From Raja brachyura (lineage: Eukaryota), in contig OY740783.1 of the NCBI GenBank assembly GCA_963514005.1, forward strand, positions 133,424,001 through 133,488,000: a DNA stretch of 64,000 nt, given 5' to 3'. Below, piece after piece: positions 9,564 to 39,208 of this stretch. The notes beneath the pieces are model-generated. The model was not told the DNA's origin, searched no databases, and saw only the letters and a program-made list of their open reading frames with translations. Each line of letters opens with the position of its first letter. Position 1 is the first letter of the stretch. Both the position numbers and the translations under genes were made by a program.

Positions 9564-9719
9564 TGAATATTTGGTTTGCTTCATTTGGAGGTGTTATTTT
9601 AATTCCATTACGTTTTCAACTGCTTGTAACATTTCCAAATGGTCTACTCGGCCCATTGGGTCCATGTCCACACCGAGCATTCGACTCGGCTCCCGTTCGA
9701 TTCCTTTGATACCTACAAC

Positions 9720-10998: not shown

Positions 10999-11708
10999 CG
11001 CATATCAATGCCGGCCACTAGGAATAGCACCCACTTAGTCCCCTGTGTGGCTTGTCCGTCTCACACTGCCTTACGTTGGGATGAAGTGAATCATTTCTGG
11101 ATCCTTCACTCCCGACACAGTGTTCACAGCCTCCAGGTGAATGGAAACAAACCGAGATGACGGATACCCGGGAATGAGATACAGCCTGTATTGGACTGAA
11201 TATGATTAATGTGGGTTAAGTGTGAATGGTTGGTTGATGGCTGGTGATGAAACGGTGTTCAACCATAAATGGCTGGTGATGAAACAGGGTTCAACCAAAA
11301 TGGCTGCCTCCAAACAAATGTTGTACAATAACAGTTCCCGTTGTCCCAAAGGGACGTGGAGCAGATGGGTCACAGTTGGATGGGGAAATAATAAAGCAGA
11401 ACGAACTCTACCCCCAAAGAGTGTCGTTCCATACAACACGTATTCTCTACGAGGCATCTGGTGTGTCAAACAGGACTGTTGCATGTAACACCGTTTGACC
11501 ACATCTGCACATCTGGAAGATTGAAATTGTGCAAAGTCCAAACTTCAACGCCAGCCTCGTTCCTTTATGCTGGACTTATACTTGTGCGTCCATGGTGATT
11601 GTTCTTGAGGGGGATTAAGTTCAGTCAAACCTGTTTGCCTGATCTATGTAGGTAAATCTCACTCCCTAAAACGCTTTTTATTCTTCCCCGTGAAATGATG
11701 AAAGCCTT

Positions 11709-12320
11709 GGTAAAGTGCTGGAGAAACTCAGCGGGTGCAGCAGCATCTATGGAGTGAGGGTAAGGACCAACTCCGCGAGGCGGAGGAGAGTATCAGTGCA
11801 CGGGTATAGGTTGTTTCTCCGGTCGAGGAAGAACCGGAGGGCGTTGAGACCATCCTGGTGGGGGATGGAGGTGTTGAGTGGCTGGACGTCCATGGTGAAG
11901 ATGAGGGGATGGGGGCGTAGAGACTGGAATGCGCGGAGACGACGGAGAGCGTCTGAGGTGTCTTGAACATAGGTAGGGAGGGATTTAACCGAGGGGGATA
12001 GGACGGAGTCAAGGTACGTGGAAATGAGTTCGGTAAGGCACGAACAGGCAAAGATAATGGGTCTACTGGGACAGTCAGGTTGGTGGATTTGGGGGAGAAG
12101 GTAAAATTGGGCCATGCGGGGCTGGGGAACGATGAGGTTGGAGGCTCGGAAAGGCAGGGAACCGGAGTTGATGAATACGGTAATTGTGATGGAGATAGTG
12201 GCCTAGTGCTCGTCAGTGGGGTCATGGTCCAGGGGTAGGTAGGAGGAGGTGTCCAATAGTTAGAGCGTGGCCTCAGCTTTGTAGAGATCGACGCGCCGGA
12301 CATTTGAGGGTTAGGACCTT
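11709..12320 (-). mobile_element. Penelope-like RT fragment inserted only in duplication copy 1
   Basis: ORF 11747..12115 (RPII...YLDSVLSP...YVQDT...FTMDVQPLNTSIPH). Absent at the equivalent site near 26314 and flanked by CCTT. Confidence 0.88.
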
Positions 12321-14373
12321 ACTCGCCACCTTCAACGTTCTCCCATTATCAGTCACATCTCCCATTCCCACCCACTTCCGCCTTTGGTAGAGACCACACT
12401 CTCCGCAAACCTTTGGTTCGTCCAACTCCTGATGGTCAGTAACATAAAGCCCCACTTATAGTATTGAAAGTGTTGACCAATGACAGCAAGCGTGCCATAC
12501 GCCTTCTTCGCTACAGTAGCTAACTGTCACCCTAAGGGCACAATGTCATTGTACCTCTTGATCTGTCTGTTTTGCAGCACACCCCAGATGAGGATGTTTC
12601 CACTAGTGGGAGAGTCTAGGACCAGAGGTCGTGGCCTCTAAATAGCAGGACGTGCCTTTAGAAAGGAGATGCGAAGGGATTTATTTAGTCAGGGGTCGGT
12701 GAATCGGTGGAACTAAATGCCACATAAAGCTGTGGAGGCTGTCAATTGATATTTTTAAGACAGTGATCGATATTTATCAGTACGGGTGTCAAGGTTATGG
12801 GCAAAAGGCAACAGAATGGAAAATAGATCAATGGATGTCAATGGATGATGTGGGGCGGGTGGGGAATGTGGTGACATTGTCCATACCTAAGTGTCCTTCA
12901 GGGGGTGGTGGTGAGGCGCCTACTTGATCCACCGAGCCTTTGGTGACGGTTATCTGGTGACGGCTAGGATGGAGGAAAAGGCGTATGGCGATCGCCATTA
13001 AAAAAAAAAAACAGAGTGAGGCTCTCGCTAAGCAAGAGGAGAAAATGTGACAGAGAGCAGGCAGCGATGTGGAGAGAGAATTAGCGGCAGAGCAGTCCCG
13101 TTGTTAATGACCGGGGCTGCGAACTGATGGGGCCGACTGGTTTCCAGTAGGGAGAAGATCTAATGGAGGGATTTAACATTGTCTACAGGGAGGTTGTTCC
13201 CATTGGTGGACAGAGAAGAGATGACGATAGAGAATGGGGATGATTAGCAAAGTAACCAAGTGTGTTGCTGGGAGCCATTAATGTTAGTTTTGTCGTTTAG
13301 CAACTCCTGAACATTCTGCAGCAAATGAAGGAAGCAACTTCTGCATTTCAGGGTCCAGGAATAAACAGCCGTGAGAGAGGACGTCACAGCACTGACGTGC
13401 TGGTGGACAAATGTCTGTGGGGTTATCGTTGCTTGGTCTTGCTGTCGCTCCGATTGCAGGGTGGCAACGGGTGATTCATTCTTTATATTCACTTCCTCAC
13501 ACAAACTGGAAAACACAGAAACAGAGTTCACAGCCACAATATTCTTGGAAACAAAGTGAGTGACAGCTACCCTGGAATGAGATACTGCCTTTTATGGGTT
13601 GCATTGGATTAATGTAGGATTAATGTGAATGGGTCACATTAATCCTACCTAAGCCAGCCACACACCTTAGTCGCCACACTGACTACCCGTGTCGCCAATT
13701 CAGGAAAATGTTAACCCTTGGGCTCTTTGTTTTACAGCACTCACCAGGCCCTGTCGTTCACAGTGTAAGTCACCCTGGTATTACTTTTTTAAATGCCTGG
13801 CCTTGTATTCCTTCGCATATTTTCCCAGTTGATCTAGATTATCATTAATTTTCTGTGCCAGTGCTATTAAATGTAAAAAACTGTCTGACGTTCTCTACAT
13901 TCCGCGAGGATCACTAGGATTATGACGATGGATACTTGTTGGCACAGTGTACACATGTGGGGTTAGAAGGCCTGTTCCTGCACCACATCGCTCCATGGCG
14001 ATAATGCTGGGGACACGAACATGCAGATCCGGAATCTTGTGCGAAAACCAAATTGCTGGAACAAGATAATCGGTTCGGGCAACGCCTGTGGAGGAGAATG
14101 GGCAGATTACGTCTCGGCTCGGGATCTCTTTATTCAGACGTCGTCTGTCAATGTCCCTTCACGGATACAGCTTAATCCGCTTAGTTCCTCCATGGCATTG
14201 CTTTTTGCTCATGACCCTGACATTGCTCAGTATGAAATAACTAATTATCAGTATTTATAGCAGTTCCTCAAATCTTTGCCGGAAATGCAGATATACTTGG
14301 AGCAAGTTCCGCGTTTCAGCGTCAAGAATCTCACAGCAGTGAGTGCGGTGGACAGCGCACTGAAGTGCTGGCG

Positions 14374-14434
14374 ATGTGCTCTCTCTGGGTGTGTCTCTGC
14401 ACCGTCCTGCTCTCCGTCTCAGTCCACGGGTACA
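14374..14434 (+). CDS. Gene A signal-peptide exon
   Basis: MCSLWVCLCTVLLSVSVHGY plus phase-1 donor A|gtaggt. Conserved in copy 2. Confidence 0.75.
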
Positions 14435-15515
14435 GTAGGTGTTTTGTTGACCATGTTATCTCCTCCTTGTCTCGTCATATCTCCCAATGTACCGGTTCGC
14501 ACTCTGTCCGCGCTCCAGCAGTTTGTACTTTGGCTGAGATCGATCAATGGGTGTGGTGGGGCTGGTGGGGAGTGAGGCGATATTGTCCATACCTAAGTGT
14601 CCTTCAGAAAGTTGTGGCGAGGCGCCCTGGTGACCCACCGAGCACTTGGTGAAGATGGTGAAAATACGTATGGAGACCGCCATTCATGAGACTCTCGATC
14701 AGCAAGAGAGGAAAATGTGACAGAGAGGAGGCGGGGATGTGGAGAGATAATTAACCGCAGAGCAGCCGCGACGTGTGTTATTATTTTCCGCAGGTGTGAG
14801 CTGGAGGGGCCGACTAGTATGCAGCTCGGTTGAGGTCGGGACGAGATCTAATGGAGGGATTTTGCGCACATGAATGTTGTTTCCATCGGTTGTGGCGCCG
14901 GGGGCGGGATAGGGGGGCAGGAGCGAGGGGGGTGGGGAGGGTGGGGTAGGGTAGACGGATAGATTTAATCGACGGTATGTGAAAGTAAGGAATATTCAGG
15001 GCTGTGTGTTGAGAATATGGATAAGAAGTCCGACTGGCTGGATTGATTTTCCATGAAGTCGGTATAGAACCGATGGGCCGAATGACAATCTCCACTTTGT
15101 ATCCATTATGTGACAGCAAGGGAATCCCAATAATCCATCTCCGGCTCCAGTCCTACAAAATGTCCAAACATTTCCTCTGCCCAGAAAGTAAATCAGCAAC
15201 ATTATAAAAACCAACTGACCCGGGGAGCAGACGTGAATCACACACCCATGAACAGTTGATTATATCCCAGCTTGTAACCCACTCCCCGTGTTGATGTATC
15301 TGTCCCACAGACATCTGAAGACATCGCGGGGCAGTGTGGATTTGGAACTCCACACCTGTACCNNNNNNNNNNNNNNNNNNNNNNNNNNNNNNNNNNNNNN
15401 NNNNNNNNNNNNNNNNNNNNNNNNNNNNNNNNNNNNNNNNNNNNNNNNNNNNNNNNNNNNNNNNNNNNNNNNNNNNNNNNNNNNNNNNNNNNNNNNNNNN
15501 NNNNNNNNNNNNNNN

Positions 15516-15892
15516 GACCAGGCGTTGGACAATATACGGTGCGGATGGGGTGTCTGCCGTGGAGGGGGCCTCCGCTGTGTTGCCGTGTACATTCACCCAC
15601 CCACGCACTGATCGCATCCTCACCGGCTCCGTGCTCTGGCACGAGGTTTCATCACAACCTCCCAGCCTTGTGTTTAAATGCACATGTCTCGGTCCCGGCC
15701 GCTCCCGGTGCGTTGAAGTGACACAGGAGGCTGGAGGAGGTCGGTTCAAATTAGTGGGGAAGCTCAGAGAGGGTGATGCCTCGATAATGGTGGAGCGACT
15801 GAGACTGGAGGACAGTGATAAGTACCGGTGCGGCCTGGAGCTCAGTGTTGGGTATTTTCAATCTCAGATTCCAACGCAGCTGACTGTGGAAG
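15516..15892 (+). CDS. Gene A V-set Ig domain 1, Siglec-15-like (acceptor hidden in gap 15363-15515)
   Basis: WTIYGADGVSAVEGASAVLPCTFTHP...W...VFKC...C...GRFKLVG...ERLRLEDSDKYRCGLE...LTVE G|gtgaga; open frame, phase 1. Confidence 0.9.
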
Positions 15893-17038
15893 GTGAGAAC
15901 AAAGTTCCGAGACTGTCGCTGCCCCAGAGCTCACGGACCGCGGGTTCCCCCGGTACAATGCTGATCAATACATGTTGATGGTTCAATTCAATGATTCAAT
16001 TATACTGTATTCTCACGCGTACATAGGTACTGCGAAATATTTTGTTTTGCAGACAAGCGTGAAAAATCATGTAGCAGACCTCACCTTGACAACACACAAG
16101 TGTCGCCATATTTTGGCGCCGAGAGTTGCAAAGATTCACTGCAGTTCTCTCTACTGCCTGTCGCCGCTCGTGATATCGCCCCCACCTCCCTCTCACTGTC
16201 ATTCTCGGCTGCCCACCTCGCCCCCCGACGGCCATCTTCACTCTCCGACGACCCTCCGCACTATCAGACGACCCTCCTCACTCTCCGACGGCCCACCTTC
16301 CTCTCGGCGGTTGCTCCCGGGTCCATCTTCGTTTTTGCGGCGCGGATCCTGTCGTTAGGTCCGCGGAAGGCGAGCCGGTCCTAAAGCAGGGCCAAGCCGG
16401 AGAACACGTGCAGCCGCACTGTTGGGCGAGAACAATCGCCTCGTGGGGTCGGGTGGGGTGGGGGTTGGTGGCTGAAGGGCCGGGGTTCCTGCTCCTGAAT
16501 CAGCTCCAGTTGATCCGTCTGGAGAGTGCGCTCCTAGAGTGGACGAGACGCCGGCGCTGGTCGACAGTGAAATACAGGTGGATGTGTAAACCGAGAAATA
16601 GGAAGATGCTGATCACCTTGTTGAAATTGTTCTCCAATTATCAATGGAAACAGAGGTGCCCAGTAGTAAAGGAGGTGTTGGGCCCCAATCCCCTGTCGGC
16701 GGGTCTCCCTCTCTGTGTGGAATTCACCGCTTCAAACAATGAATATACCCAATGGAGAACAGTGTTGGGATCCGGGGAGGCGCGGGTTCGCTGTCGCTCA
16801 CTCTCTCGCTCTCAGAGCAGCGAGGAAGAGCCGCGCTGTCAGCGGCGACCAGTGACCCCTGATCCGGAGCCACCCTTTGAACGCGTCCTGTCCCTTGCGC
16901 CCTCTGACCCACCTTCCCTGGGACCGTCACTATCAGCTGCACACTGAGCACCGCCTTCACCCACTCCCACAGGGAGAGGTCGGTACAAGACCATTCACCC
17001 ACAGAACTGATACATTCCGGTGTCTATCCTTCCCTCAG

Positions 17039-17452
17039 CTCCCGGCGGGAATGTCTCCGTGGTGACTGGGACTGTGGGAGGTTCGGCCACGTTACCCTGT
17101 GTGTATCGGCAATCCCAGTATCACCGCAGCGCCCTCAGGGTGACATGGATGAGGAAGGATCCCTACGGACACATCGTCACGTTCAGACCTCAAGCTGAAG
17201 GATCCTGGGCGGCGGAGAACGGAGCAATTCGGTTCGTGCTGGTCGGGGACCCAAAGCTGGGAAGCGCCTCAACCAGGATAAGGCAGCTGAGTGTGGACGA
17301 CTGTCACGGCTACCTGTGTCTGGTGGAGTTCAGCGAACCGGAAAACTACGATCCCATAAAGGACGTCGACTACAAGTTCAGGAGCAGTGTGCACCCGCCG
17401 TACACCCATCAGTACCAGTGTGAGGTCCAGCTCCGGATGCGGGTCACACGCG
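17039..17452 (+). CDS. Gene A V-set Ig domain 2 with long FG loop
   Basis: cag|...GGSATLPCVY...VTWMRKDP...RFVLVGD...QLSVDDCHGYLCLVEF...RVTR G|gtaagg; 414 nt, phase 1-1, open. Confidence 0.9.
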
Positions 17453-18764
17453 GTAAGGAACTATCGCCACATTCTGCCGTGTAGAGCGAAGGTGCAGAGG
17501 GAGGGAGGGGAGCATGAACAGGAAACCTCGTCTCTCAGGACTCATTAGGCACAGCCTCGCATCTGGAGGGTCAGATACAACTCCAGAGAAAAGTCAACCA
17601 TAGTTGATCCATTTATGGGAGTCCTTTGGCGAGGTGAGGAATTGAATGCCTAATAGGGAACAAGGTTCTGTGGTACTAGGATCTAAGTTGGGTCCCAGCC
17701 ACGAGTTTGGGGAACCAGATGCAACAAGGCGGCATTAAGTCAATGGACTGTCAGGGATTGAGAAGAAGTTATCGAGCAGAATGTAGAATTAAATATCTGG
17801 ATCTCTGTCATGTTGAGAGTCTGCGGCTGGCGAGGTACGTCAGAGATTGGTTCTTGGGTCTCAGCTATTCACAGTCTGCATCAGTGAGTTGATTGAGGGG
17901 GGCAATTGTCAGGTTTGATAATGATGGTAGTGCCGTGGGACTGTGAGAGGGCAGAAGGACACGGGGATGCGGGGCAGGTGGACAAGCTGAATAAGTGGGT
18001 GGGAGCATAATGTGGAATAAAATGTGGCGAATTGTCAAATTATCCACACGGTTGAACTAAACATAAAACCAGGGTGTTTATTAAATGTTGAGATCGGTTA
18101 AATGAGAGATCGGGCGCTGTGGATGTTTAAAAGGACCTGAGTGTGCTTGTTCTCATGTCAATGAAGGGTGATGTACTGATGTGGAAGAGTCGAGAAAGGC
18201 AATAAGTGGTCAGGTTTTATCAAGAGACGATTTATATTCAAGCGTTGAGATGTTTCACTGCAGTTATGTGAGGATCTAGCGACACCACCCCTGCAGTACT
18301 GGGTCGGACTTCGTTCATCTTAACTACAATAAAGCCATGATTAATGTGGAGCGTGTGTAGTGAACATCCCGTCACTATTTCCCGGAAGGGCAGGTTGTTG
18401 AAGATCAGGGGAGATTGAGTAGACCAGAGACCGTGGAGAATGCAGGTACAGGAACATTGCGCAGGAAAAAAGCTGCTGGGGGAACTCGGTAGGTTAGGCA
18501 GCAAGTCTGGAAGGAAATTAACAATGTCAATTCATATCGAGACCTTGCCTCAAAACTGGAAGGATTCCCGGACTAAACGACGTCTTTGCATTTCCTTCTA
18601 CCGTTTCCTGACTTCCTGAGCGCTGTCAGCAGTCTGTTATTTGCAGGTTAGACCTGTATTCTCCAGAGTGTCGAGCATGAGAGGTGATCTTAGTGAAGCG
18701 TACACCATTTGTACATTGTCGATAGCTCCCCGTTCCCAGTGACCACTCTGACCTCTCTCCTCAG

Positions 18765-18863
18765 TCACACAGGGTTACATGATTCTGATCCTGTGGATCG
18801 CTCTTGGATTGAAAACCCATTTCTTTTAGTGATGTGTGTTATCTTCTACCGTGACAAACTCAG
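18765..18863 (+). pseudogene. Gene A transmembrane exon with Lys and a 1-nt deletion
   Basis: cag|VTQGYMILILWIALGLKT[fs]FLLVMCVIFYRDKL AG|gtaagt; 99 nt versus 100 nt in gene C. As written it stops after THFF. Confidence 0.85.
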
Positions 18864-19617
18864 GTAAGTAATATTGCTTTTCTATGACTGGAATATCAAC
18901 TCAATGGCCCTTGGTGTGATTGAAAAATGTGAGGTTTCATAGGCGCGCCAACCATCGAGCATCCATGCACTAGTTCTATCCTGCACTATAGGGGACGTTT
19001 GCAGAAGCCAATTATCCTACAAACCCACACGTGTTTGTGATATGGGACGGAAATAAAACATGCGGTCACGGGGAGCACGTGGAAACGCCGCACAGACAGC
19101 ACCCGTGGTCAGGATCGAACCCGGGACTCTGCGCTGCAAGGCAGCATCTCTCCAACTGCACCACCGTGGTACCCCTGTCGCGTTGGAAATACATTGTCCA
19201 GGTGCATCATGTACCGGCAGATGGAAGAACAGCTTCATATCCGCTCAGACGCTCGGAGAAATCCCTCAACAGATAAGAATGTATTCCCGATCCTCATGTC
19301 TACCTTGATAGGGCCCTTGTCCTCTGCCCTTTATCTGTAACCCTATATTCTTCACGGCTTGGGTCTATGGAATAATTTATCTGGAATACAGACGCAAACA
19401 TGTTTTTTCTGTGTCAAGGTGACAATAAACCAATACCAGTACCCTGTTGTAGGTCGGACAATCTTCCTCACTGTCAACACAACCACCAATATAAGTGTCT
19501 CCTGTTAAATTAATCACCTGTTTCGCATATTGATGTCCACCTCAAATGGAGTTGCCAGAAATGGTCTTGTGGTACAATTACTGAGGCTTGTTCTAATTGG
19601 TCTTCTTCTGTCCGCAG

Positions 19618-19795
19618 CAAGCGTGGAGACCGATCCATCCTAGGAAGCTGAGCAGTGTTCAGACTGCAATATAACCTGCCTCGCTATGCAGTCCGCCGAT
19701 CATACCTGCTTTTGCGGTCCGGCTGATTTGTCGACCTATGGTTCTCAATCATATTAATTCTCCGACTGGCTTTAATATTTATGTGATATAATAAA
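19618..19795 (+). other. Gene A probable last exon (short tail, 3' UTR, AATAAA at 19790)
   Basis: The acceptor aattactgaggc...ggtcttcttctgtccgcag| is homologous to the gene C acceptor at 37067. Early stop in either plausible phase. Confidence 0.55.
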
Positions 19796-22700: not shown

Positions 22701-24449
22701 CGAAAGTCATTTCTACCCGTCACTCTCAACCTTCCCTTTCTGAGTCCGCTGTGTTCCCCCAAGGAGGTACCGTGAGAATACAGAGCCTCGCTGCGAGAGC
22801 GAGGAAACCGGTTCCAGGGTTTCTATAACAGGACACTGAACGTCAGAGACAACTAAGTAATCACTCCTGAAAAAAACATAAAGTGCTGGAGCTACTCGGC
22901 GCCTCAGGCAGGCATCTCTGGAAGACTGGATAGCTGACGAATCGGGAATAGCGGAGTGCACTCGATAGGCGAATGAACTAATTCTGTTGCAGTGTCATGT
23001 AATCTTATGATCGTATACATATATGTCGAAATACCGTTTGGAAGTCATAATCGCATCTGCTTCCATAGCTTCATTCCAGATGCAGACGAATGTCTGTGAA
23101 AATATTGTCCATCTGTCCCCTCTTACATCTCTCCAGACTCACAACCCTCTGCCCTCTAGTTGTAAGATCATCTGTCTTGGTATAAATACTGCGAGCTCCA
23201 GTTAATCCAGGTCCCTGATACTGTATACCTCAATGGAGTCACCCCTCAGCCTCGTGTACTTTAAAGGAAAATGTCCCAGCCTATCTTACCTCTCCCTATA
23301 ACTGAAGCCTGCAACCCCATGTAATACTTCCTATAGCTGATCGGCCACAGTGCTCCGAATGTGGTCTCAACAATGACTTGTAGAACTGAACCATGATATT
23401 CCAAATTTTGTATTCCATATCATTTCCGGAATATGTACTGTACTAGCAGGTCTCCCTGTTCTGCAACATTCTCCATGGCTCTACCAAGTCCCGTTTTGGT
23501 TTAACACAATAAAGTGGACGTTTTTTTTTTACACTGAGAGTGTTTGCAATCTGGAATATTTAAAAAAAGGGATGAAAATTAGATACAAATACTTGCTCAA
23601 GAGGCGTTTGGACAAATATTTAATTAGGCAAAAGTTGAAAGGTTAGACAAAGTCCTGCCGTTTCTCGGGTCAGAAAGGATCCCCACTCGATGCGTCACCA
23701 ATCCAAGTCCTCCAGAGATGCTGCCTCGGCCGCTGACTTACTCTACCACGTTGTGTCTATCATTGGTATAAACCGGTATCTGCGGTTCCTTCTCCTTACA
23801 AGTTGGAAGGATATGGATCTAATTCGGACAAACAAGATTGATGTGCACAGCCAAAATGTTCACATGAACATGGTGGGCCTAAGGACCAATTTCTCCACTG
23901 CAATTCCATGACACGTTCACTCCAGAAGCATGTCCAACCCTCCTTGCTGTGGCAACCCCAGGATCGAACTAACGTATTTGATGTCCTTTTCTTCGCAAAC
24001 CTCAAATCTGCTTATATGCATCAAACGATGCATTTCACACGCAGGGAACACAATCTAATTATTAATGCAGTTTGCTTAATTTAGAATATTTGTAACCTTC
24101 GAATCTAATTAAAATGAATCGAATCTAAAATGCTATTTCAATTCAATTATGCAATACGTACAAAATATATCTTTATTTTTAATGCAGTATACTTAATTTA
24201 GAGTATATATTTAGGCACGTCTTTAAATGCATTTTGAATATAAGGGATATACGGAACATAGTGAAAATTGTTTATAAAATTCAGCGGTACAATGATTATT
24301 TGGTTCACTTTAATTGTTATTTTAATTCAATTACGTATTCAATTGCTTGTAACATTTCCAAAGGGGGCTATACGGCCCAGTGGGTCCATGTCCACACCGA
24401 GCATTCGACTCCTCTTCCGTTCGACTCCTTGATACCGACAACAGGTCCA

Positions 24450-25585
24450 CGGACGATGCCATCGTCCTAGCCTTATAGCACTGCCGACAACGCTTAGATA
24501 ACAGATGCACCTACGTCAGACCTATTCAAAGACCACAGCCCTGCCTTCAATGCCATGATAGCTTTCCAAACTCATTACCAAATTCTCGGGACTTGGGGTC
24601 AGCACTCATCTCTATCAATGGATCCTCGACTTCCTTACCAAGTGACCCCAAATCAGTAAGGATTGGGGACAAATTATCCTCCACTATAATCCTCAACATG
24701 GGGGCTCCGCAAAGAAAGCCTTCTCAGCCCCATTCTTCATTCCTTGTACACCCTTGTAGCCATGTATACATCTAATTCAATGTTCAAATTTGATGACAGC
24801 ACCACTAGTGTGGGCCGGATACCATATAATTATGAGATGGAGTACAGTTGGGAGATTAACAACCTCGTGTCCTGGCACCCAGACAACAAACATTCTCTTA
24901 ATGTTTGCATGTGAAAGGAAATCGTGATCGACTTCAGGAGGCGAAGCGATACACAAACTCCAGTTTGCCTTCATGGTGCCGAAGGAAAGATGGTTGAAAA
25001 CTTCAAATTCCTATGTCAATATCCCCAGCAACTTCTCCATGACCACCCATATTGAAGCAATGACCAAGAAGGCACACCAGCGCCCCTATTTCCTGAGAAG
25101 GCGTAGGAAGGTCGGCATGTCCCCTACAAGTCCCACTAACTTCTACAGATGCGCTTTGGAAAGCGTTTATCATGTTGCGTCACAGCTTGGTTTGGAAACA
25201 GCTCCATCCGAAACCGCAGGAAAGTGCAGGGAATTGTGGACGTAGCCCCGACCATCACACATTCCCTTTTATTGACTCAAATTACACATCATACTGCCTC
25301 GGCAAGGCCAGCAGCATAATCAAGGACGAGTCACACCCAGGCCACTCCACCTTCTCCCCTCTCCCATCAGGCAAAAGGTAGAACAGTGTGTAAACCCACA
25401 CGTCCAGATTCAGGGACAATTTCTTCCCAGTTGTTATCACGGAACTGAATCATCAACCAAAGAGGAGTACTGAACTACTATCTACCCTATTGATGATCCT
25501 AGGAGGCTCCTTGACCGGACCAGTGTTTTTCACAGATCCTCAGTACACGTGACAAAAAACTAAACTAAGCAAAACTAAACTAAAC
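24450..25585 (+). mobile_element. Rex1/Babar-like LINE 3' fragment (duplicate of 9720-10998)
   Basis: KKAHQRPYFLRRRRK motif and (ACTAA)n tail. Confidence 0.75.
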
Positions 25586-28377
25586 ACGCATATTAATGCC
25601 GGCCACTAGGAATAGCACCCACTTAGTCCCCTGTGTGGCTTGTCCGTCCCACGCTGCCTTACTTTGGGGGGAAGTGAATATTTTCTGGATCCTTCACTCC
25701 CGACACAGTGTTCACAGCCTCAGTGTGAATGAAAGCAAACCGAGATGACGGGTACCCGGGAACGAGATACGGCCTGTATTGGACTGAATGGGAATAATGT
25801 GGGCTCAGTGTGAATGATTAGTTGATGGCTGGTGATGAAACAGGTTTCAACCATAAATGGCTGGTGATGAAACAGGGTTCAATCAAAATGGCTGCCTCCA
25901 AACAAATGTTGAACAATAACAGTTCCCGTTGTCCCAATGGGTAATCGAGCAGATGGGTTACAGGTGGATGTGGTTACTGGGCAATACGGGGAAATAAAAC
26001 AGCAGAATGAACTCTGCCCCAAAGAGTGTCGTTGCATACAACACGCATTCTCCACATAGCATCTGTTAATGCAAACAGGACTGTTGCATGTAACACCGTT
26101 TGACCACATCTGCACATCTGGAAGATTGAAATTGTGCAAAGTCCAAACTTTAACGCCAGCCGTCTTCCTTTATGTTGGACGTATAATTGTGCGTCCTTGG
26201 TGATTGTTCTTGGGGGGTATTAAGTTCAGTCAAACCTGTTTGCCTGATCTATGTAAGTAAATCTCACACCTTAAAAATTTTTTTTATTCTTCCCCGTGCT
26301 GTGATGAAAGCCTTAATCGCCATCATCAACGTTCTCCCATTATCAGTCACACCTTCCCATTCCCACTCACTTCCGCTTTCCGTAGAGACTACACTCTCCG
26401 CAAACTTTTGGTTCCTCCAACTCCTGAAGGGCTGTAACATAAAGCCCCACTTATAGTATTGATAGTGTTGGCCGACGACAGCAAGCGTGCCACACGCCTT
26501 CTTCGCCACAGTAACTAACTGTCAACCCAAGGGCACAATGTCATTGCACCTCTGGATCCGTCTGCTTTGCAGCACTCTCCAGATGAGGGTGTGTTCACTT
26601 GAGGGGGAGTCTAGGACCAGAGGGCGCGAAAGGAGATGAAAAGGGATTTATTTAGGCAGACATTGGTGAATTCATTGCCCCCGAAATCTATGGGGGCCGT
26701 CAAATGATATTTTGAAGACAGAGATTGATAATTTATCAGTACGGGTGTCAGGGTTATGGGCAAAATGCAACAGATTGGGGTTGGGAGGGAAAATTGATCA
26801 ATGGATGTCAATGGATGACGTGGGGCGGGTGGGGAATGTGGTGCTATTGTCCATACCTAAGTGTCCTTCAGAAGGTGGTGATGAGCCGGCTTCTTGACCC
26901 ACCGAGCCCTTGCTGAAGGTTATCTTGTGACGACTAAGATTGAGGAAAATGCGCGTGGAGACCGCCAGTCATCAAACTGAGTGAGACTCTCGATCTCTCG
27001 ATGAGCAAGTGGGGGAAAGGTGAGAGAGAGCAGGTGGGGATGTGGAGGGAGAATTAACAGCAGAGCAGCCGCGATGTTATTGACCAGTGGTGCGACTTGG
27101 AGGAGCAGACTGGTTTCCAGCTCCAAACAATGAAGTAGGGAGAACATCTAACGGAGGGATATAACGTTGTGTACAGGGAGGGTGTTCCCATTGGTGGACA
27201 GAGAAGAGATGACTGTAGAGAATGGCAGCGATTGGCAAAGGAAGCAAGTGTGTTGCTGGGAGCCATTAATGTTAGTTTTGTAGTTTCGCAGCTCCTGAAC
27301 ATTCTGCAGCAAATGAAGGAAACAACTTCTGCATTTCAGGGTCTAGGAATAAACAGCCGTGAGAGAGGAGGTCACAGCACAGACGTGCTGGTGGACAAAT
27401 GTCTGTGGGGTTATCGGTGCTTGGTCCTGCTGTCGCTTCGATTGCAGGGTGGCAACGGGTGATTCATTCTTTATATTCACTTCCTCACACAAACTAGAAA
27501 ACACAGAAACAGAGTTCACAGCCGCAATATTCTTGGAAAAAAAGCGAGATGACAGCTACCCTGGAATGAGACACTGCCTTTTATGGGTTGAATTGGATTA
27601 ATGTAGGATTAATGTGAATGGGCCACAATAATCCTACCTCTGCATGCCACATACCTTAGTCGCCACGCTGACTACCCGTGTCTCCAATTTCTGAAAAATG
27701 TTAACTTGTGTGCCCTTGGGCTCTTTGTTTTACCGCACTCACCAGCGACCCGTCGTTGACAGTGTAAGTCACCCTGGTATTACTTTTTTAAATGCCTGGC
27801 CTTGTTTTCCTTCGCACATGTTCCCAGTTGATCTAGATGATCAATAATTGAGTCTGCAAGTGCTATTACATGTAAAACCTCTCTGACGTTCTCTACATTC
27901 CGCGAGGATCACTAGGATTATGGCGATGGATACTTGTTGGCACCGTGTACACATGTCGGGTTAGAAGGCTTGTTCCTGCACTACATCGCTCCATAGCGAT
28001 AATGCTGGGGACACGAACATGTAGATCCGGAATCTTGTGCGAAAACCAAATTGCTGGAGAAAGATCAGCGGTTCAGGCAACGTCTGTGGAGGAGAACGTG
28101 CAAACGACGTGAGGGGTCGGCCCCTCTTTATTCAGACGTCGTCTGTCAATGTCCCTTCACAATGTCCCATACAGCCTAACCCTCTTAGTTCCTCCATGAC
28201 TTTGTTTTTTGCTTATGACCCTAACCCTGCTCAGTTTGAAATGACTAATTATCAGTACGTATAGCAGTTCCTCAAATCTTTGCCGGAAATGCAGAAATAT
28301 TTGGAGGAAGTTCGGCATTTCAGCATCAAGAAGCTCACAACAGCGGGTGAGGTGGAATCCACACTGACGTGTTGGCG

Positions 28378-28432
28378 ATGTTCCGGGTTTGTCTCCCCGC
28401 CGTCTTGATCTCCGTCTCAGTCCACGGTTATA
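28378..28432 (+). CDS. Gene B signal-peptide exon
   Basis: MFRVCLPAVLISVSVHGY plus phase-1 donor A|gttggt. Confidence 0.65.
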
Positions 28433-29370
28433 GTTGGTGTTGTTGTTGACCTTGCTATGTTCTCCTTGTCTCGTCATATATCGCAATGTACCGGTTAGCA
28501 CTCTGTGCGCGCTCCAGCAGTTTGTACTTTGGATGAGATCTATCAATGGACGAGGTGGGACGGGTGGGGATGGAGGTGATATTGTCCATACCTAAGTGTC
28601 CTTCGGAAGGTGGTTATGAGGCGCCCTGGTGACCCACCGAGCACTTGGTGAAGGTTATCTGGCGAAGGCTAAGATGGAGGAAAATACGTATGGAGATCGC
28701 CATTCATAAAACGGAGTGAGACTCTCGACGAGGGGAAAATGTGACAGAGGAGGCAGGGATATGGAGAGAGAATTAACAGCACAGCAGCCGCGATGTTATA
28801 CACCAGTGGTGCGAGCTGGTGGGGGGGAGGGGGGGGGGGGGGGGGCTTAAGGAGACGGGAAGATTTAACCGACGGTATGCGACAGTAAGGAATTAGCATG
28901 GCTGTGTGTTGAGAATATAGAGAAGAAGTTCGACTGGCTGGATTCATGTTACATGGAGTCAGTATAGAGCCGATGGGCCGAATGGCCGTCTCCACTGTGC
29001 ATCTATTATGTGACACCAAGGGAATCCCAATAATCCATCTCCGTCCCCGGTCCTGCAAAATGTCCAAACATTTCCCCTGCCCCGAAAGTAAATCAGCAAC
29101 ATTATCAAAACCTACTGACCAGGGGAGCAGACGCGAATCACACACCCATTAACAGATCATTAACCCGGGGACAGTGTGCATTTGGAACACCACACCTGTA
29201 CTNNNNNNNNNNNNNNNNNNNNNNNNNNNNNNNNNNNNNNNNNNNNNNNNNNNNNNNNNNNNNNNNNNNNNNNNNNNNNNNNNNNNNNNNNNNNNNNNNN
29301 NNNNNNNNNNNNNNNNNNNNNNNNNNNNNNNNNNNNNNNNNNNNNNNNNNNNNNNNNNNNNNNNNNNNNN

Positions 29371-30242
29371 TGGTTGGACAATATCCGGAGTCTGCCGTGG
29401 ATGGGGCCTCCGCTGTGTTGCCGTGTACATTCAACCACCCACCTGATCGCATCCTCACCGGCTCCGTGTTGTGGCACTTGTTGCAACCAGGGACTGCCAG
29501 CCTCGTGTTTAAATGCACATATGCCGGTCCCGGCCGCCCCCGATGCGTTGAAGTGACACACGTTTAATCTTGCTACTATATCCCAGCCTGGATTGGGAAC
29601 TCCACACCTGTACTCGTTCCAATATTAACCTCTCCCACCCCCCTCTCTCTCCCTCTCTCTCTCACTCTCTCTCCCTCTCTCGCTCTCTCGCTCTCTCTCA
29701 CTCTCTCTCCCTCTCTGCCTCACCCCCCATATCACCCCTCCCCTCTCTCTCTCTCTCCCCCTCTCCCTCTCTTTCCCCAGACATTAAATCAGCAACATTA
29801 TAAAAACCAACTGACCAGGGGAAAAGACGCGAATTACACACCCATGAACAGTTGATTATATCCCAGCCTGTAACCCACTCCCCGTGTTGATGTATCTGTC
29901 CCACAGACATCTGAAGACATCGCTTGTCACAACACCCCGGGGATAGTGTGGATTTAGAACACTACACCTGTACTCGTTCCAATATTAACCTCCTCTTCAG
30001 GTGTCTTCAGAGCCTCCCAGCCTTGTGTTTAAATGCACATATGCCGGTCCCCGCCACTCCCGATGCGTTGAAGTGACACAGGAGGCCGGAGGAGGTCGAT
30101 TCAAATTGGTGGGGAACCTCAGAGAGGCAGATGCCTCGATAATGGTGGAGCGACTGAGATTGGAGGACAGTGATAAGTACCGGTGCGGCTTGGAGCTCAG
30201 TGTTGGGAATGTTCAATCTGTGATTCCAACTGACTGTGGAAG
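29371..30242 (+). pseudogene. Gene B V1 exon, split, partly duplicated and frameshifted
   Basis: The 5' half (29371-29559) is frameshifted. It is followed by re-duplicated upstream intron and (CT)n, then the 3' half (30001-30242) with a 4-nt deletion before the donor. Confidence 0.85.
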
Positions 30243-31175
30243 GTGAGAACAAAGTTCAGAGACTGTCGCTGCACCAGAACTCACGGACCGCGGGTTCCCC
30301 CGGTACAATGTTCTATTCAATTCTACTGTATTCTCACACGAACCTGGCTGAAGTAAAATACTTTGTTTTGCAGACAACCCTGAAATATCATGTAGCAAAC
30401 CTCATCTTGGCGGTACACAAGTGTCGCCACGTTTTGGCGCAAAGATTCACCGCAGTTCTCTCTACTTTCTGCCGCCGCTCCTAGCATCGGCCCCACCTCC
30501 CTCTCACTGTCATTCTCGGCTTCCCTCCTCGCCCCCCGACGGCCATCTTCACTCTCCGACGACCCTCCACACTATCAGACGACCCTCCTCACTCTCTGAT
30601 GGCCCTGAAGAGCCGGGGTTCTTGCTCCTGATTCCTCTCCAGTTAATCCGTCTGGACAGTGCGCTGCTGGAGTGGACGAGACGCCGGCCCTGGTCGACAG
30701 TCAAATACAGGTGGATTGTGTAAACCCAGAAATAGGAAGATGCTGATCACTTTGTTGGAATTGTTCTCCAATTGTCAATGGAAACCCAGGTGCCCAGTAG
30801 TAAAGGAGGTGTCGGTCCCCAATGCCCTGTGGGCGGATCTCCCTCTCGGCGTGGAGTTCACCGCTTCACACGTTGATTATTCCCCGTGGAGAACAGTGTT
30901 GGGATCCGAGGAGGCGCGGATTCGCTGTCGCTCACTCTCTCGCTCTCAGGGCAGCGCCGAGGGCGAGCCGCGCTGTCAGCGGCGACCAGTAACCCCTGAT
31001 CCGGAGCCATCCTTGAATGCGTCCTGTCCCTTGCGCCCTCTGGCCCACCTTCCCTGGGACCGTCACTGTCAGCTGCACACTGGGCACCGCCTCCACCCAC
31101 TCCCATAGAAGAGATCGGTACAAGACGATTCACCCACAGAACGTTGATACATTCCGGTGTCTGTCCTTCCCTCAG

Positions 31176-31600
31176 GTCCCAGTGGGTGTGTCTCAGTGGT
31201 GACTGGGACAGCGGGGGCTTCGGCCACGTTACCATGTGTGTATCCACAATCCCGGCATTACCCTAGCGCCCTCACAGTCACATGGATGAGGAAGGATCCC
31301 TGCCGACACATCGTCACGTTCAGACCTCAAGCTGATGGATGCTGGGCTGCGGAGAACGGAGCAACTCGGTTCGAGCTGGTCGGGGACCCAGAACGTGGAA
31401 ACGCCTCAACCAGGATTAATCAGCTAAGTGTGGAGGACTGTCACGGCTACCTGTGTCTGGTGGAGTTCAGCAAACCGGAAAACTACGATCCGAGATATGA
31501 CGTCGACGTAAATTTCAGGAGCAGTGAGGTAAATTTCAGGAGCAGTGAGGTAAATTTCAGTACCAACGTGAGGTCCTACTCCGGCTGCGGGTCACACTCG
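31176..31600 (+). CDS. Gene B V2 exon (G strand frameshifted, no stop before the donor)
   Basis: GASATLPCVY...WMRKDP...GYLCLVEF; 425 nt, so it enters in phase 1 and leaves in phase 0. A 21-bp tandem repeat lies in the FG loop. Confidence 0.75.
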
Positions 31601-32918
31601 GTGAGGAACCATGGCCACACTCTGCCGTGTAGAGCGAAGATGCAGAGGGGGCGAGGGGAGTAGGAACAGGAAACCCTGTCACTCTGGACTCAGTGGGCGC
31701 AGCCTCGCATCTTGAGGGTTGGATGCAACTCCAGAGAAAGGCCAACCAAGGTTGATCCATTTATTGGAGACCTTTAGCGAGGTGAGGAGTTGAAAGCCTT
31801 AGATGAAACAAGGTGCTATGGTACGTTTCGATTCTCAGAAGGATCTAGGTTAGGTCCCAGCCACGAGTTTGGGGAACCAGGTGCGAGAAGGCGGCATTAA
31901 GTCAACGCACTGTCAGGGATTGAGAAGTAGTTTTCGAACAGAATGTCGAATTAAATATCTGGATGTCTGTCACGTTGAGAGTCTGCGGCTGGCGAGGTAC
32001 TTCAGAGATTGGTTCTTGGTCTCAGCTATTCACAGTCCGCACTCGTGAGTTGATTGAGGGGGGGGGGGGGGGGGGGGTTGTCAGGTCTAATGATGGTGGT
32101 AGTGTCTTGGGACTGTGAGGGGGCAGGAGGACGTGGAGATTCAGGGAAGGTGGACACGCTGAATAAGTGGGTACGATCATTATGTGGAATAAAATGTGGC
32201 GAATTGTCAAATTATCCACACGGGTGAACTATACATAAAACCAGAGAGTTTATTAAATGGTGAGAGATCGAGTGCTGTGGATGTGCAAAAGGACACGAGT
32301 TTGCTTGTTCTCATGTCAATGAAGGGTGATGTACTATGTGGAAGAGTCGAGAAAGGCAATAGTTGGTCAGGTTTTATCAAGATATGATTTATATTCAAGG
32401 GTTGAGATGTTTCACTGCAGTTATGTAATGGTCTAGTGAGACCACCTCTGCAGTAGTGGGTCGGAATTTGTTCTTCTTAACTACAATAAAGCCACGATTA
32501 ATGTGGAGAGAGTGCAGTGAAGATACCGTCACTGTTTCCCGGAAGGGCAGGTTGTTGAATATCAGCGGAGATTGAGTAGACCAGAGACCCCGGAAAATGC
32601 AGGTGCAGGGACTTTGAGCATAACAAAAAAACCGCTGGAGGAACTCGATAGGTCAGGTAGCATATCTGGAAGGAAATTGACGAATGACAGTGCATATCGA
32701 AACCTTGATCACAAATGGAAGGATTCCCGGACAACTCGACGTCTTTGGATTTCCTTCTACAGGTGCCTGATTTCCTGAGCGCAGTCACCAGTCTGTTATT
32801 TGCTCGAGCAGATTAGACCTGTATTCGCCAGAGTGTAGAGAATGAGAGGTGATCTCAGTGAAACATTCACTATTTGTATATTGTCGATCGCTCCCCTTCC
32901 CAGTGACTACTCTGACAT

Positions 32919-33414
32919 CTCCCACTCTCTCCTCAGTCACACTCTCACCTCAGCTCCCACTCTCCTCAGCTCCCACTCTCTCCTCAGCTCCCACTCTCTC
33001 CTCAGCTCCCACTCTCTCCTCAGCTCCCACTCTCTCCTCAGTCACACTCTCACCTCAGCTCCCACTCTCACCTCAGCTCCCACTCTCTCCTCAGTCACAC
33101 TCTCACCTCAGTCACACTCTCACCTCAGCTCCCACTCTCTCCTCAGCTCCCACTCTCACCTCAGCTCCCACTCTCTCCTCAGTCACACTCTCACCTCAGC
33201 TCCCACTCTCTCCTCAGCTCCCACTCTCTCCTCAGCTCCCACTCTCACCTCAGTAACACTCTCACCTCAGCTCCCACTCTCTCCTCAGCTCCCACTCTCT
33301 CCTCAGCTCCCACTCTCTCCTCAGCTCCCACTCTCACCTCAGCTCCCACTCTCTCCTCAGCTCCCACTCTCTCCTCAGCTCCCACTCTCTCCTCAGCTCC
33401 CACTCTCTCCTCAG
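32919..33414 (+). repeat. 28-unit 16-18 bp minisatellite derived from the TM-exon splice acceptor
   Basis: Units ctcccactct(c/ca)..cctcag and tcacactctcacctcag. The single-copy counterpart in gene A is ctctctcctcag|tcacac. Confidence 0.95.
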
Positions 33415-33490
33415 TCTTGTGGATCCCTCTTGGATTGATAATCCTTATTATTTTAGTGATATGTTTTATCTTCTACCGTGACAAAGTCAG
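33415..33490 (+). CDS. Gene B transmembrane segment, no Lys
   Basis: VLWIPLGLIILIILVICFIFYRDKV AG|gtatgt. The AAA (Lys) codon of genes A and C is ATA (Ile) here. Confidence 0.85.
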
Positions 33491-33564
33491 GTATGTAACG
33501 TTGATTTTCTATGCCAGGAATATAATCTCAATGGCTTTTGGGGAATAATTTAAAAAAATGAGGC

Positions 33565-33950
33565 TTCCCAGGCCCAAAGAATGAGGACATCCTGGATGTC
33601 CTGGCGTGGAATACCACGTGTGGGTACAAATACGGCATAGACAGAGGAATTGGGAGTTGTGGATAGAGGATTTGCAGGAAGCAGGGTGTGAAGTCTCGAT
33701 AGTTGTTGGAGCCTGTACGTTTATTGTAGACATCAGTCGATGGTCTATCTCCTGTGATGGAGACAGTGAGATCAAGAAAGGGTAGGGAGGTGCCAATGAT
33801 TGTTCCAGTGAATCTCAGTGCAGGATTGAAATTGGGGGTGAAGTTAGGGAAGTCTATGAGTTCTGCATGGGTGCAGGAGGTAAAACCGATGCCATTGTCA
33901 ATGTAACAGAAATAGAGTTCGGCGATAGGGCCAGTGTACATTTGGAACAA
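33565..33950 (-). mobile_element. Penelope-like RT fragment
   Basis: ORF 33528..33983: CYIDNGIG (decayed YIDD) and LPFLDLTVSITGD...DVYNK. Confidence 0.8.
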
Positions 33951-34611: not shown

Positions 34612-34833
34612 TGTGTTAAAGAAGGAACTGCAGATGCTGGAGAATCGAGGGTTACGCAAAAAGCTGGAGAAACTCAGCGGGTGCAGCAGCATCTAAGGAG
34701 TGAAGGAGATAGGCGACGTTTCGGGTCGAGACCCTTCTTCCTGCGAAAGGTCTCGACCCGAAACGTCGCCTATCTCCTTCGCTCCTTAGATGCTGCTGCA
34801 CCCGCTGAGTTTCTCCAGCTTTTTGTGTAACCC
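34612..34833. mobile_element. Fold-back element of two inverted Penelope-type pLTR pieces with a 13-bp target-site duplication
   Basis: Near-perfect inverted repeat at 34647-34835; tccactagttttt at both 34599-34611 and 34834-34846. Confidence 0.8.
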
Positions 34834-36924
34834 TCCACTAGTTTTTAATTCGTTAATCCTGGGAAAAAGACTGTGAGGCTTCACTTTATCCATGCCCCTC
34901 GTGATCTTGTGCACCTCAATAAGGTAATCCCTCAAGGTCGGCTGCAGGAGGTTCCCTGGGAGCGAGACATCCAAGGAAGATGATGGCTGGAGGCCCTGCA
35001 GCAGCCTGGGGCACACCTGGATCGGGCGCAGCTCACAAGACCTGGAATGCAGACTGGATTTTTAAATGGCTCAAAATCCTAGTCTCTCTTGCTTGCAGTC
35101 TCAGTGGACTATTTCTGTACACGTTGCTAATCGGGGATTGTGGTTAGGTATTGCAATATGGCATTAAAGACCCTCGGACTATCTTTGATTGCACTTTACT
35201 GGACTTTTTCTTGCACTTAACGCTATTCACATTGTTCCCTTTATCGTGTATCTGTACACTGTGGATGGCTCGATTGTAATCATGTATTGTCTTTCCACTG
35301 ACTGGTTAGCACACAACAAAAGCTTTTTATTATACCTCGGTACACGTGACAATAAACTAAACTCAAAACCTTACTGGACTGTCTGTAAGGAAAATAATGT
35401 CACTGTGTGTTTGCACAATTGACAATAAAAGCAACATTGAATAATTGATTCTGACCAAAACAATGGGCTAGAACAGGGATGATGCGGTGAATGCTCAGAC
35501 TGAGTGCAGTACAGATTATCACGGAGGAACAGCCAACGTCCTTGCACAAAACAGGTTTACTTGTTGCATTTCAATTCATTGTAGTGTCATCAAAATACTT
35601 TCATAAACTCCGAGACTAGAATGGATATGGCACCTTGGACGGCACGCATCACTTGGACTGAAGGGTCAGCTGTGCGCCGTATGTCTATGTGAAAGCACAG
35701 TCCACCATGTTGGCAACAGTAAAATTAGCAAAGGTTATAAACTCTTTATGGGGAAATAAGGATATTGTCACCCTGAGACAGACAGGCAGACCCAAGGGCA
35801 AGGAACTATCCATTTGACTGTCTGTAACCCACCAGCTTTGGTTTTGAAAGCATTCGTGACTGGGAGGTCACAAGGAGAGAGGAGCTCATCCCAACTCCAC
35901 ATTAGACAGTACCTCTCCCTCAACCCTGTTTTCTGATCTAGAATGTCTACGGTAACATTGTGTGCAGATGTTGGGCGGCACAGTGGCGCAATAGGTAGAG
36001 TTGTTGCCTCACGGCACCAGAGACACGGGTTCGATCTTGACTTTGGGTGCTGTCTGTGTGGAATTAGTCTCGTTCTCCCTGTAACCCTCTGGGTTTCCTC
36101 CTGGTGCTCTGGTTTCCTGCCACATATAACGTCATGAGGGTTTGTCGGTTTGTTGGTGTGTAAAGACTGTATATGAAAGTGTGTATGATGTGTGTTTGTG
36201 TGTGGGCACAAATACATGCATTGCTGTATCATAGTACCACCCTTCACCATTCCTACATGCACGCTTGTCTGCTTATGCATGTGTTATTTGTAAATACATG
36301 CATCAGCAGTACATGGACTTTGTATGCCAATACATGTTTGTGCATATATATTATCTGTGTGTTATATGCTGATAATAATTTTGAGTGCAATTCTGTACAA
36401 TTATACTTGTGTGAATAATTATGAATTTATTCATCTTTGTGAAAGGTAGATATGTTTGCAATTGTTTACCCTTCTACTGTTTCTTCACTTGTGGGTCATT
36501 TCGGTCGTGAATGCATTTTATTATGTCTGCCTGTAGGTACATTCCCAACTTCTGATGAGCTAGTGGGATATCCCAGAACTAATATGAGTGGGTGATCGAT
36601 GGTTGGCATGGGTCGGTGGGCTGGAGGGTTTACTCCCATGGTGTATCTCCAATCTAATACTCCGCATCCCACCACTCCCCCGACCTATTCCCTCCACACT
36701 CATCATCACCTCTCCTTCTTATTCCTCGCTACTCTTTTCCCGCACTCGGCCCAAAATAAATGCTCTCAAATTTCTCGCCCTGGGTGTTTGTGAAGTTTAG
36801 TTACTGGTATTCATGTCCAGTATTATTATTGGGAATGATCGTACATAAATCCCAGTGGGAATGCCAGGGTGGTTTACAACTGTGATGGATAGCTCATCGG
36901 CAGGACGAAATTTGTACTTGGGGC

Positions 36925-37067
36925 CTATGCATCGCGCATCGAACGATTGCCTTCAAAGCACAGCTGAGATCGGCGGAGGCAGGCAGTGTGGAAAAAGCGG
37001 CAGATGTGCATGTGGATGAAGAAAATGGGTGTCTCAGCCTCCAGCGGTGGATCAGACCCGACTCCTT
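36925..37067 (-). CDS. Gene C candidate last coding exon
   Basis: Acceptor ggtcttgttctgtccacag| is homologous to 19618. Phase-1 reading EGVGSDPPLEAE...MRDA*, with no Tyr motif. Confidence 0.45.
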
Positions 37068-37656
37068 CTGTGGACAGAACAAGACCAGTGAAAATTACTG
37101 AGCTTCAGTAATTCCACAGGAAAAGCTTTTTTCCCCCATTGATCGGCAGCATCACAGAATGGTTACAACGTAGGCGGTGACCACTCAGCAGGTCAGGCAG
37201 CATCTGTGGAGGGAAATGGACGGATGGCGTTCCCGTGTGTCAAGGAACTGCAGATACTGGTTTATCAATGAAAGACACCTGGTTATTACGGGTGTCGGGG
37301 TTATGGAGAGAAGGCAGGAGAATGGGGTTGAGAGGGGAAGATAGATCATCCATGATTCAATGGTGGCATTGACTTGACAGGTCGAATGGCCTAATTCTGC
37401 TTCTTGAACTCATGAACATGAAGTTATGACACAAAGTTCTGGAGTAACTCAGTGGGTCAGGTAGCATATCTGGAGAACACTGGAGCACCTCTGGTAGATC
37501 TTCCCCTTCGCTCTACCTGTTGTACTTGAGCGTCACGTGATTAAAATTATGTATCACATTATCTGATCTGATTGGATTGCATGCAAAGCAAAGCTTGCCA
37601 CTGTACGTCAACAGCTGTGTCAACAATCAGTCTAATCCTAACCCTCACTCGCTCAC

Positions 37657-39173: not shown

Positions 39174-39208
39174 CTGAAGAGAGAGTGAGAGGTCAAACCA
39201 GACTCGAT

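Follow-up and report, generated by a model that had tools for sequence, protein, structure and literature searches.

A minisatellite grown from a splice acceptor in a probably disabled Siglec-15-like receptor gene of Raja brachyura

Can a minisatellite that arises from a splice acceptor bring a frameshifted receptor gene back into frame, and would the outcome be a working receptor? The question is raised by a 64-kb stretch of Raja brachyura DNA, here called the window, which carries three Siglec-15-like V-V-TM receptor paralogs, A and B on the forward strand and C on the reverse strand (Table 1). A first-pass annotation of gene B proposed that V2, when spliced to an array of short units in front of the TM exon, reads on into that exon, so that an apparent pseudogene may encode a receptor with a single V domain on a new Ser/Pro/Thr-rich stalk. 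The arithmetic of this proposal was borne out. The receptor does not follow from it, and in our judgement gene B is probably a recently disabled chondrichthyan Siglec-15-like activating receptor that carries a neutral minisatellite derived from its own acceptor.

To place gene B in its family, we compared its exons with known proteins and structures. The V domains of the window paralogs are V-set by Pfam, and the best solved-structure match of both V types was Siglec-15 (E 7e-15 and 3e-11), with weaker matches to pIgR and TIM; V domains resembling those of CD300, TREM and pIgR are described for the modular domain immune-type receptors (MDIR) of skates (PMC3031540). Gene B V2 had 63 longer and 14 shorter homologs, the latter being models without a leader (12 seen in full, 2 by their starts); every listed name was chondrichthyan, and the closest homologs came from skates. 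Two types of member occur in the family: activating (V-V, a Lys in the TM, a short tail such as RDKLSKRED) and inhibitory, with tyrosine motifs. The leader, the V1 pieces and V2 of gene B were located by tblastn, and its TM aligns with that of paralog A; gene B is descended from the activating type, and its ancestor would have consisted of leader, V1, V2, TM with Lys and a short tail. The nearest relatives are chondrichthyan Siglec-15-like V-V receptors (Leucoraja LOC129695295, P0011, and Amblyraja LOC116971356, P0012; inhibitory-type P0013 and P0015). Gene B shares with the P0011/P0012 type the leader, the long F-G loop, the TM motif and a V2 that is 75–78% identical over the matched part. 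The relatives, however, have two intact V domains, a spacer of 13–19 aa, the TM Lys and a short tail, none of which is intact in gene B; the two V-set domains, the Lys and the short tail exon are the three features of a working activating member that it lacks.

Siglec-15 itself, according to a published account (PMC11550040), has an essential Arg (R143) in its N-terminal V-set domain, combines a V-set with a C2-set domain and bears a YENL motif in its tail. In the chondrichthyan family the Siglec-type Arg is a V1 feature, being found in 40 of 56 V1-type matches and in none of 84 V2-type matches (80 of which have Leu). Many relatives retain it in V1, whereas A and B have both lost it: the residue after the F-strand Cys is Gly in V1 of both genes and Leu in V2. 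Gene B is thus Siglec-15-like by descent and departs from Siglec-15 proper in the missing V1 Arg, in a second domain that Pfam assigns to V-set and not C2-set, and in the tail, which in activating homologs is short and not of the YENL kind.

A tandem duplication of about 10–14 kb (9563–18944 and 24292–33573), 84–88% identical, contains paralogs A and B; their aligned intron sequence differs by 13% (164 of 1264 sites), and the duplication ends abruptly 83 nt past the gene B TM donor. The TM exon of paralog A has a 2-nt deletion after the Lys, which shifts the frame into a stop, and paralog A is probably a pseudogene as well. It has no acceptor-derived array. In paralog C, no lesion was found in the exons.

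Table 1. Positions, in the window, of the three receptor paralogs and of the features of gene B
Feature	Position	Strand	Description
Paralog A	14374–19650	+	Leader 14374–14434, V1 to 15892, V2 17039–17452, TM 18765–18863, tail exon from 19618
Gene B	28378–33490	+	Leader to TM exon
Gene B leader exon, coding part	28378–28432	+	Phase-1 donor, +3 A>T relative to paralog A; tblastn match to P0013 leader
Gene B V1 5' remnant	29371–29560	+	Behind N gap 29203–29370; cut off at 29560
Gene B V1 3' remnant	29999–30242	+	5-nt deletion; intact donor 30242
Gene B V2 exon	31176–31600	+	V-set; 425 nt, phase 1 to phase 0 (paralog A: 414 nt, phase 1 to phase 1)
21-nt unit, 2.5 copies, F-G region	31508–31560	+	Internal repeat in V2
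Candidate ancestral branch point	32912–32916	+	A at −22 from first acceptor; shared with paralog A
Acceptor-derived minisatellite	32919–33414	+	28 units of five types (17 a, 5 b, 1 c, 4 d, 1 e); 80% pyrimidine
Sole 16-nt unit	32954–32969	+	Third unit; alone fixes phase of first acceptor
TM exon remainder	33415–33490	+	First 24 nt of ancestral exon replaced by array; good donor 33490
Last A-B homology	33491–33573	+	Homology ends at 33573
Paralog C	37050–57618	−	V1 ~57618–57246, V2 44909–44562, TM 39173–39074 with Lys, tail exon from 37067

The origin of the array can be read from its units. As annotated, the TM-exon acceptor of gene B has been amplified into 28 units (21 of 18 nt, six of 17 nt and one of 16 nt), far beyond chance (TRF score 817), and a pyrimidine tract plus CAG closes every one of the 28. 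The main, 18-nt unit copies the final 18 nt of the intron. In the 17-nt unit, six bases from the start of the exon are followed by eleven from the intron's end, and a further unit type combines both. The acceptor that closes unit 1 is the ortholog of the TM acceptors of A (18764) and C, and after the last unit the TM exon continues in its ancestral phase, minus its first 24 nt. When the whole window was searched on both strands with up to 2 mismatches, the only other unit-like sequence was the TM acceptor of paralog C at 39191, identical at 16 of 18 nt. A dispersed repeat as the source of the unit was rejected within the window, where C's acceptor alone is similar. The candidate branch point in front of unit 1 was picked by the branch-point consensus, and by sequence match a branch-point-like motif lies 17–40 nt upstream of 11 of the 28 acceptors. 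Slippage between short CAC-like microhomologies flanking the AG would have seeded the array, and unequal exchange would then have spread and mixed the units. Growth of this kind, neutral and from the TM-exon acceptor of a disabled gene, is what we think the array most probably records.

A related structure is known from the donor side. In the accessible part of its description, the VNTR of human F7 intron 7 is a 37-bp minisatellite that spans the exon 7 donor, and the most upstream site is used (PMC1557585). As in that portrayal of F7, the first unit of the gene B array spans an exon-intron boundary, and every unit repeats a splice site. By the same account F7 repeats donors, which remain silent and intronic because the most upstream one is used, whereas gene B repeats acceptors, and with repeated acceptors the upstream-first rule would make the array exonic. 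Unlike the F7 units, those of gene B differ in length modulo 3, and the host gene is broken. With the first unit at an authentic boundary and a consensus match in every unit, the best reading by analogy is that the gene B array would be the acceptor-side counterpart of the F7 donor VNTR. The human CBS allele 844ins68 reportedly duplicates an intron-exon junction. According to the CBS report, this insertion offers an alternative splice site, so that most of the mRNA is wild-type and a lesion in cis is rescued (PMC1334203). Gene B likewise has a repeat at an exon start that offers alternative splice sites; judged by that report, CBS differs in being a single 68-bp copy that is spliced out, with evidence at the RNA level, whereas the 28 units of gene B are translated on paper, from sequence. 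For spl-TRs such as those of NARS2 and CFTR, the accessible text of another study has repeat length near a 3' splice site altering splicing, including via branch-point distance (PMC10078293). Those repeats, as described there, adjoin the splice site; in the gene B array the site itself is the unit, at a locus known from its sequence.

We then asked whether the frame of gene B is restored through the array, and whether this is more than chance would give. V2 is 425 nt long, with AG before and GT after, and the stretch 32937–33414 is 478 nt, both as first reported. Joined at 32937, V2 runs through 159 stop-free codons of SHSHLS, LPLSPQ and APTLSS repeats into the TM exon. The leader donor at 28432 and the start of V2 are both phase 1, as had been claimed, and this donor matches the leader end of skate homologs. 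However, acceptors for every frame are present in the array: 10, 10 and 8 of the 28 fit donors of phase 0, 1 and 2, respectively, and all of them are open, since the unit types together contain one stop triplet. Because the six 17-nt units total 0 mod 3 and so cancel, the phase of the first acceptor is set by the 16-nt unit alone. We built 20,000 random arrays of 11–61 units from the observed unit set; 24% of them offered a phase-0 donor an open, in-frame first acceptor, and 20% did so for a phase-1 donor. The V2 frameshift has no sequence link to the array. With this chance rate, a phase that hangs on one 16-nt unit and acceptors for every frame, the rescue is weak evidence: it is no more than chance and most likely a coincidence. 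The open frame would be a by-product of a C/T-rich, nearly stop-free unit and one 2-nt slip.

The predicted stalk has the composition that the C/T-rich unit dictates, with 89 of 159 residues Ser, Thr or Pro, 36 Leu and 15 His. The array-TM translation had no match in Pfam, stalk motifs were found in none of the 77 homologs, and the spacer from G strand to TM measures 13–19 aa in the 21 activating homologs matched by pattern. The suggestion that acceptor choice could switch the gene on and off holds as arithmetic, with 10 of 28 acceptors fitting the V2 phase, but any mixed 17/18-nt array gives the same. Scanning to the first AG past the branch point is documented, in the part of the source available, for introns with distant branch points (PMC1431707). 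Since gene B has kept the candidate ancestral branch point at its first acceptor, such scanning, if the gene is transcribed, would favour the AG next downstream of that branch point (32936), so that the in-frame V2-32937 junction is plausible.

Upstream of V2, gene B carries further lesions. The +3 change weakens the leader donor relative to paralog A, with donors compared here by matches to the 9-base donor consensus. The 5' remnant of V1 is 11 nt shorter than A near its start, which shifts the frame. The 3' remnant has acceptor-like sites before 30001 and 30011, and its inclusion via either ends the frame, after 28 or 125 aa. A restored receptor would therefore need skipping of the V1 remnant and use of the weakened leader donor in addition to one particular 16-nt unit, and the claim that frame rescue restores one is unsupported. 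Skipping V1 would also forfeit the likely binding domain of the family, since the Siglec-type Arg lies in V1. None of 29 leader-bearing homologs starts with V2; these were inspected by eye among 39 found with a loose search pattern, and all run from leader to V1. The V1 region (29080–30245, +) is a mosaic by the N gap, in which intron pieces and part of V1 are present twice and a (CT)n tract occupies 29630–29777; it may be a real rearrangement or a misassembly.

The V2 exon itself carries both damage and signs of past use. Its G strand, which had been described as replaced, is frameshifted out: between short identical ends, the F-G region has gained 42 nt and lost 31 nt, a net shift of +11. 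The 21-nt duplication makes phase-0 donor-like sites after 31528 and 31549, each with 7 of 9 consensus matches, whereas the authentic V2 donor has 5 of 9. Every strong donor-like site in the 3' part of V2 is phase 0; splicing from any of them would therefore keep the frame and give a product of 332–363 aa. The duplicated EVNFRS lines up with EVQLRV, the G strand of the family, and may supply a makeshift G strand. AlphaFold modelling of gene B V2 on a family alignment of 32 rows gave a mean pLDDT of 69.4, with residues 1–12 and 119–141 below 50; after F only a 3-residue strand (116–118) was modelled, and neither A' nor G was confident. In contrast, the control model of paralog A V2 (31 rows) had a mean pLDDT of 85.7, with A' (6–11) and G (122–134) present. 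Structural alignment of the gene B model with Siglec-15 extends to residue 120 (Z 8.2, rmsd 3.4, 97 aligned). Residues 1–96 contain 6 Cys, versus 1–3 in the 31 other aligned sequences; three of the seven residues private to gene B are Cys (positions 4, 42 and 55; 31178–31465), and a further Cys at position 88 is common to A and B. The extra cysteines may reflect decay or new disulfides.

Within the V2 core (codons 1–96), the B branch had 9 synonymous to 4 non-synonymous changes (binomial P 0.001–0.008), whereas the A branch had 3 to 13 (Fisher P 0.0095 versus B), a ratio as expected without constraint. Changes were polarised with C, a distant outgroup, which assigned 29 of the 37 A-B differences, and gene conversion between the genes is possible. 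On these codon counts gene B V2 shows past purifying selection, and gene B clearly looks to have worked longer than paralog A. It is closer than A to 4 of 4 skate paralogs, and at 4 conserved columns it differs from the family consensus, within the range of 0–9 seen in annotated proteins. The selection, the makeshift G strand and the read-through described next make a living gene possible, and they fit a recent death equally.

At the 3' end, the TM segment of gene B is still hydrophobic and its Lys has become Ile, a Lys that is kept in 25 of the 26 homologs matching the TM motif (63 examined). No homolog of the A tail exon was found on the forward strand between the gene B TM and the 3' end of gene C, a stretch that has no N gap; the A tail exon matches only the C tail, on the minus strand (37033–37113). 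Read-through of the gene B TM donor gives a frame of 363 aa whose tail contains V-x-Y-x-x-L (33485–33545, +), ITIM-like against the ITIM consensus; the motif derives from the donor sequence and lies only about 6 residues away from the membrane. The Leucoraja model P0025 ends with a similar read-through. Loss of the Lys together with a read-through tail would resemble an activating-to-inhibitory flip. Where the gene B tail exon is missing, a 189-nt near-perfect inverted repeat (93%) lies at 34647–34835, formed by a common interspersed repeat that is present twice, head to head. With a V domain that has no confident G strand, a TM without Lys and no terminal exon, gene B gives no support to the idea of a functional single-V product. 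The lost Lys and last exon, the V1 remnant that could be spliced in and the cryptic donors of V2 are absent from the first-pass annotation.

Could the frame relation, or some of the lesions, be unreal, with the unit count, the 16-nt unit or the V1 mosaic misassembled from a many-copy family? The window has four N gaps, one of them at gene B V1, a region that repeats pieces of its own intron, and contigs show many close paralogs over V2. Moreover, exact repeats of up to 78 nt within the array are offset by non-multiples of 3, so that a wrong assembly path would change the phase. On the other hand, no exact repeat within the array exceeds 79 nt, which is less than a 150-nt read, unique flank begins no more than about 50 nt from the 16-nt unit, and a contig of sequencing run X1 is identical to 32353–32948, across the first acceptor (596 nt, 0 differences), X1 being possibly the source sample and hence not independent. 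Contigs of runs X1, X2, X5 and X6 were compared over 29780–32990. At 32959, the contigs listed from all four runs have 2 extra letters, as an 18-nt unit would give, and by depth sum no listed contig spans the 16-nt unit without change. Because rare variants are lost from contigs and the listing covers part of the pieces, these lengths are not evidence that the 16-nt unit is wrong. Altogether we regard an assembly artefact as unlikely. Contig depth on the units reached 67 in X1, 225 in X2, 6 in X5 and 31 in X6, over unique flanks of about 2–6; a copy-number reading was rejected, as contig depth is not a copy number. Joints in the V2 F-G region in X2 (31479–31579) and X5 (31493–31580) were not assignable to a gene B ortholog, and no listed contig piece of the four runs covers the 21-nt repeat of gene B. 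Elsewhere in the window, a (GGTCTG)n array of about 115 units (5097–5785) runs into an N gap.

Two further readings give the stalk a function. In one, gene B still makes a single-V receptor from a transcript that omits V1 and joins V2 to the first acceptor; EVNFRS serves as the G strand, and the 159-aa Ser/Pro/Thr-rich stalk leads through the TM exon into the following intron (363 aa). This would agree with the open frame through the array and the Ser/Thr/Pro content of the stalk, with the past constraint on V2, with an in-frame first acceptor that keeps the branch-point candidate, and with the phase-0 strong donor-like sites. It must also accept V1-remnant skipping despite an intact donor, an order of domains seen in none of the inspected leader-bearing homologs, a V domain with neither G nor A' confident, the loss of the Lys and the last exon, the 24% chance rate, and a stalk with Leu at 36 of 159 positions, a Leu-rich composition unlike that of typical mucin stalks. 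We consider it the least probable of the readings. Hardly more probable is that an intact V-V receptor once included the stalk, or includes it to this day in other alleles or species, and that gene B of this individual was broken later. Were the third unit 18 nt long, the array would measure 480 nt (0 mod 3) and continue the frame of the ancestral phase-1 V2. The six 17-nt units add up to 0 mod 3, V2 was constrained for most of the history of gene B, and array-type junctions on the first units occur beyond this assembly, in contigs of X2, X5 and X6 from three other organisms (one X2 contig continues upstream as another unit). However, a length of 0 mod 3 would arise by chance one time in three, 20% of the random arrays accommodate a phase-1 donor with an open frame, none of the 77 annotated homologs has the stalk, and no contig listed for X2, X5 or X6 joins units to the unique flank of gene B.

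Even pooled, the stalked-receptor readings are together rather unlikely. Improbable, too, is that the mixed 18/17/16-nt acceptor array acts as a frame adaptor and as a de novo, variable-length Ser/Pro/Thr stalk drawn from intron sequence, with the TM Lys swapped for an ITIM-like read-through tail, and to the same low degree that such an adaptor would let a frameshifted gene, or an intact allele in relatives, reach the TM exon. If the stalk were real, the locus would illustrate a one-step path from intron ends to receptor stalks and a way to revive frameshifted genes, with repeat number as a control of length or of the on/off state. Under the preferred reading of a disabled gene with a neutral array, the in-frame junction would yield a V domain, probably misfolded, followed by a Ser/Leu/Pro tract, without the adaptor-binding Lys and the last exon. 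This product would probably not work, because V1 is broken and its Arg lost, the leader donor is weakened, V2 is modelled with low confidence and has private Cys, the Lys and tail exon are gone, and none of the 77 homologs has the stalk motifs. The order of events is not fixed by this reading: the array may have been tolerated first, with a distal phase-1 acceptor giving a near-normal TM exon. Its biological weight would then be small, and the locus would be a tidy case of a splice site seeding a minisatellite in a birth-and-death immune family. The array is also a ready-made minigene for learning which acceptor the spliceosome prefers among 28 that are nearly identical, as an acceptor-side mirror of the F7 donor experiments.

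In the accessible literature, outside which most subscription papers lie, neither a multi-unit acceptor minisatellite nor a description of a Siglec-15-like tandem-V family in cartilaginous fish had a direct match. That family is large and paired, with TM-Lys and tyrosine-motif members, and it is present in sharks, rays and skates.
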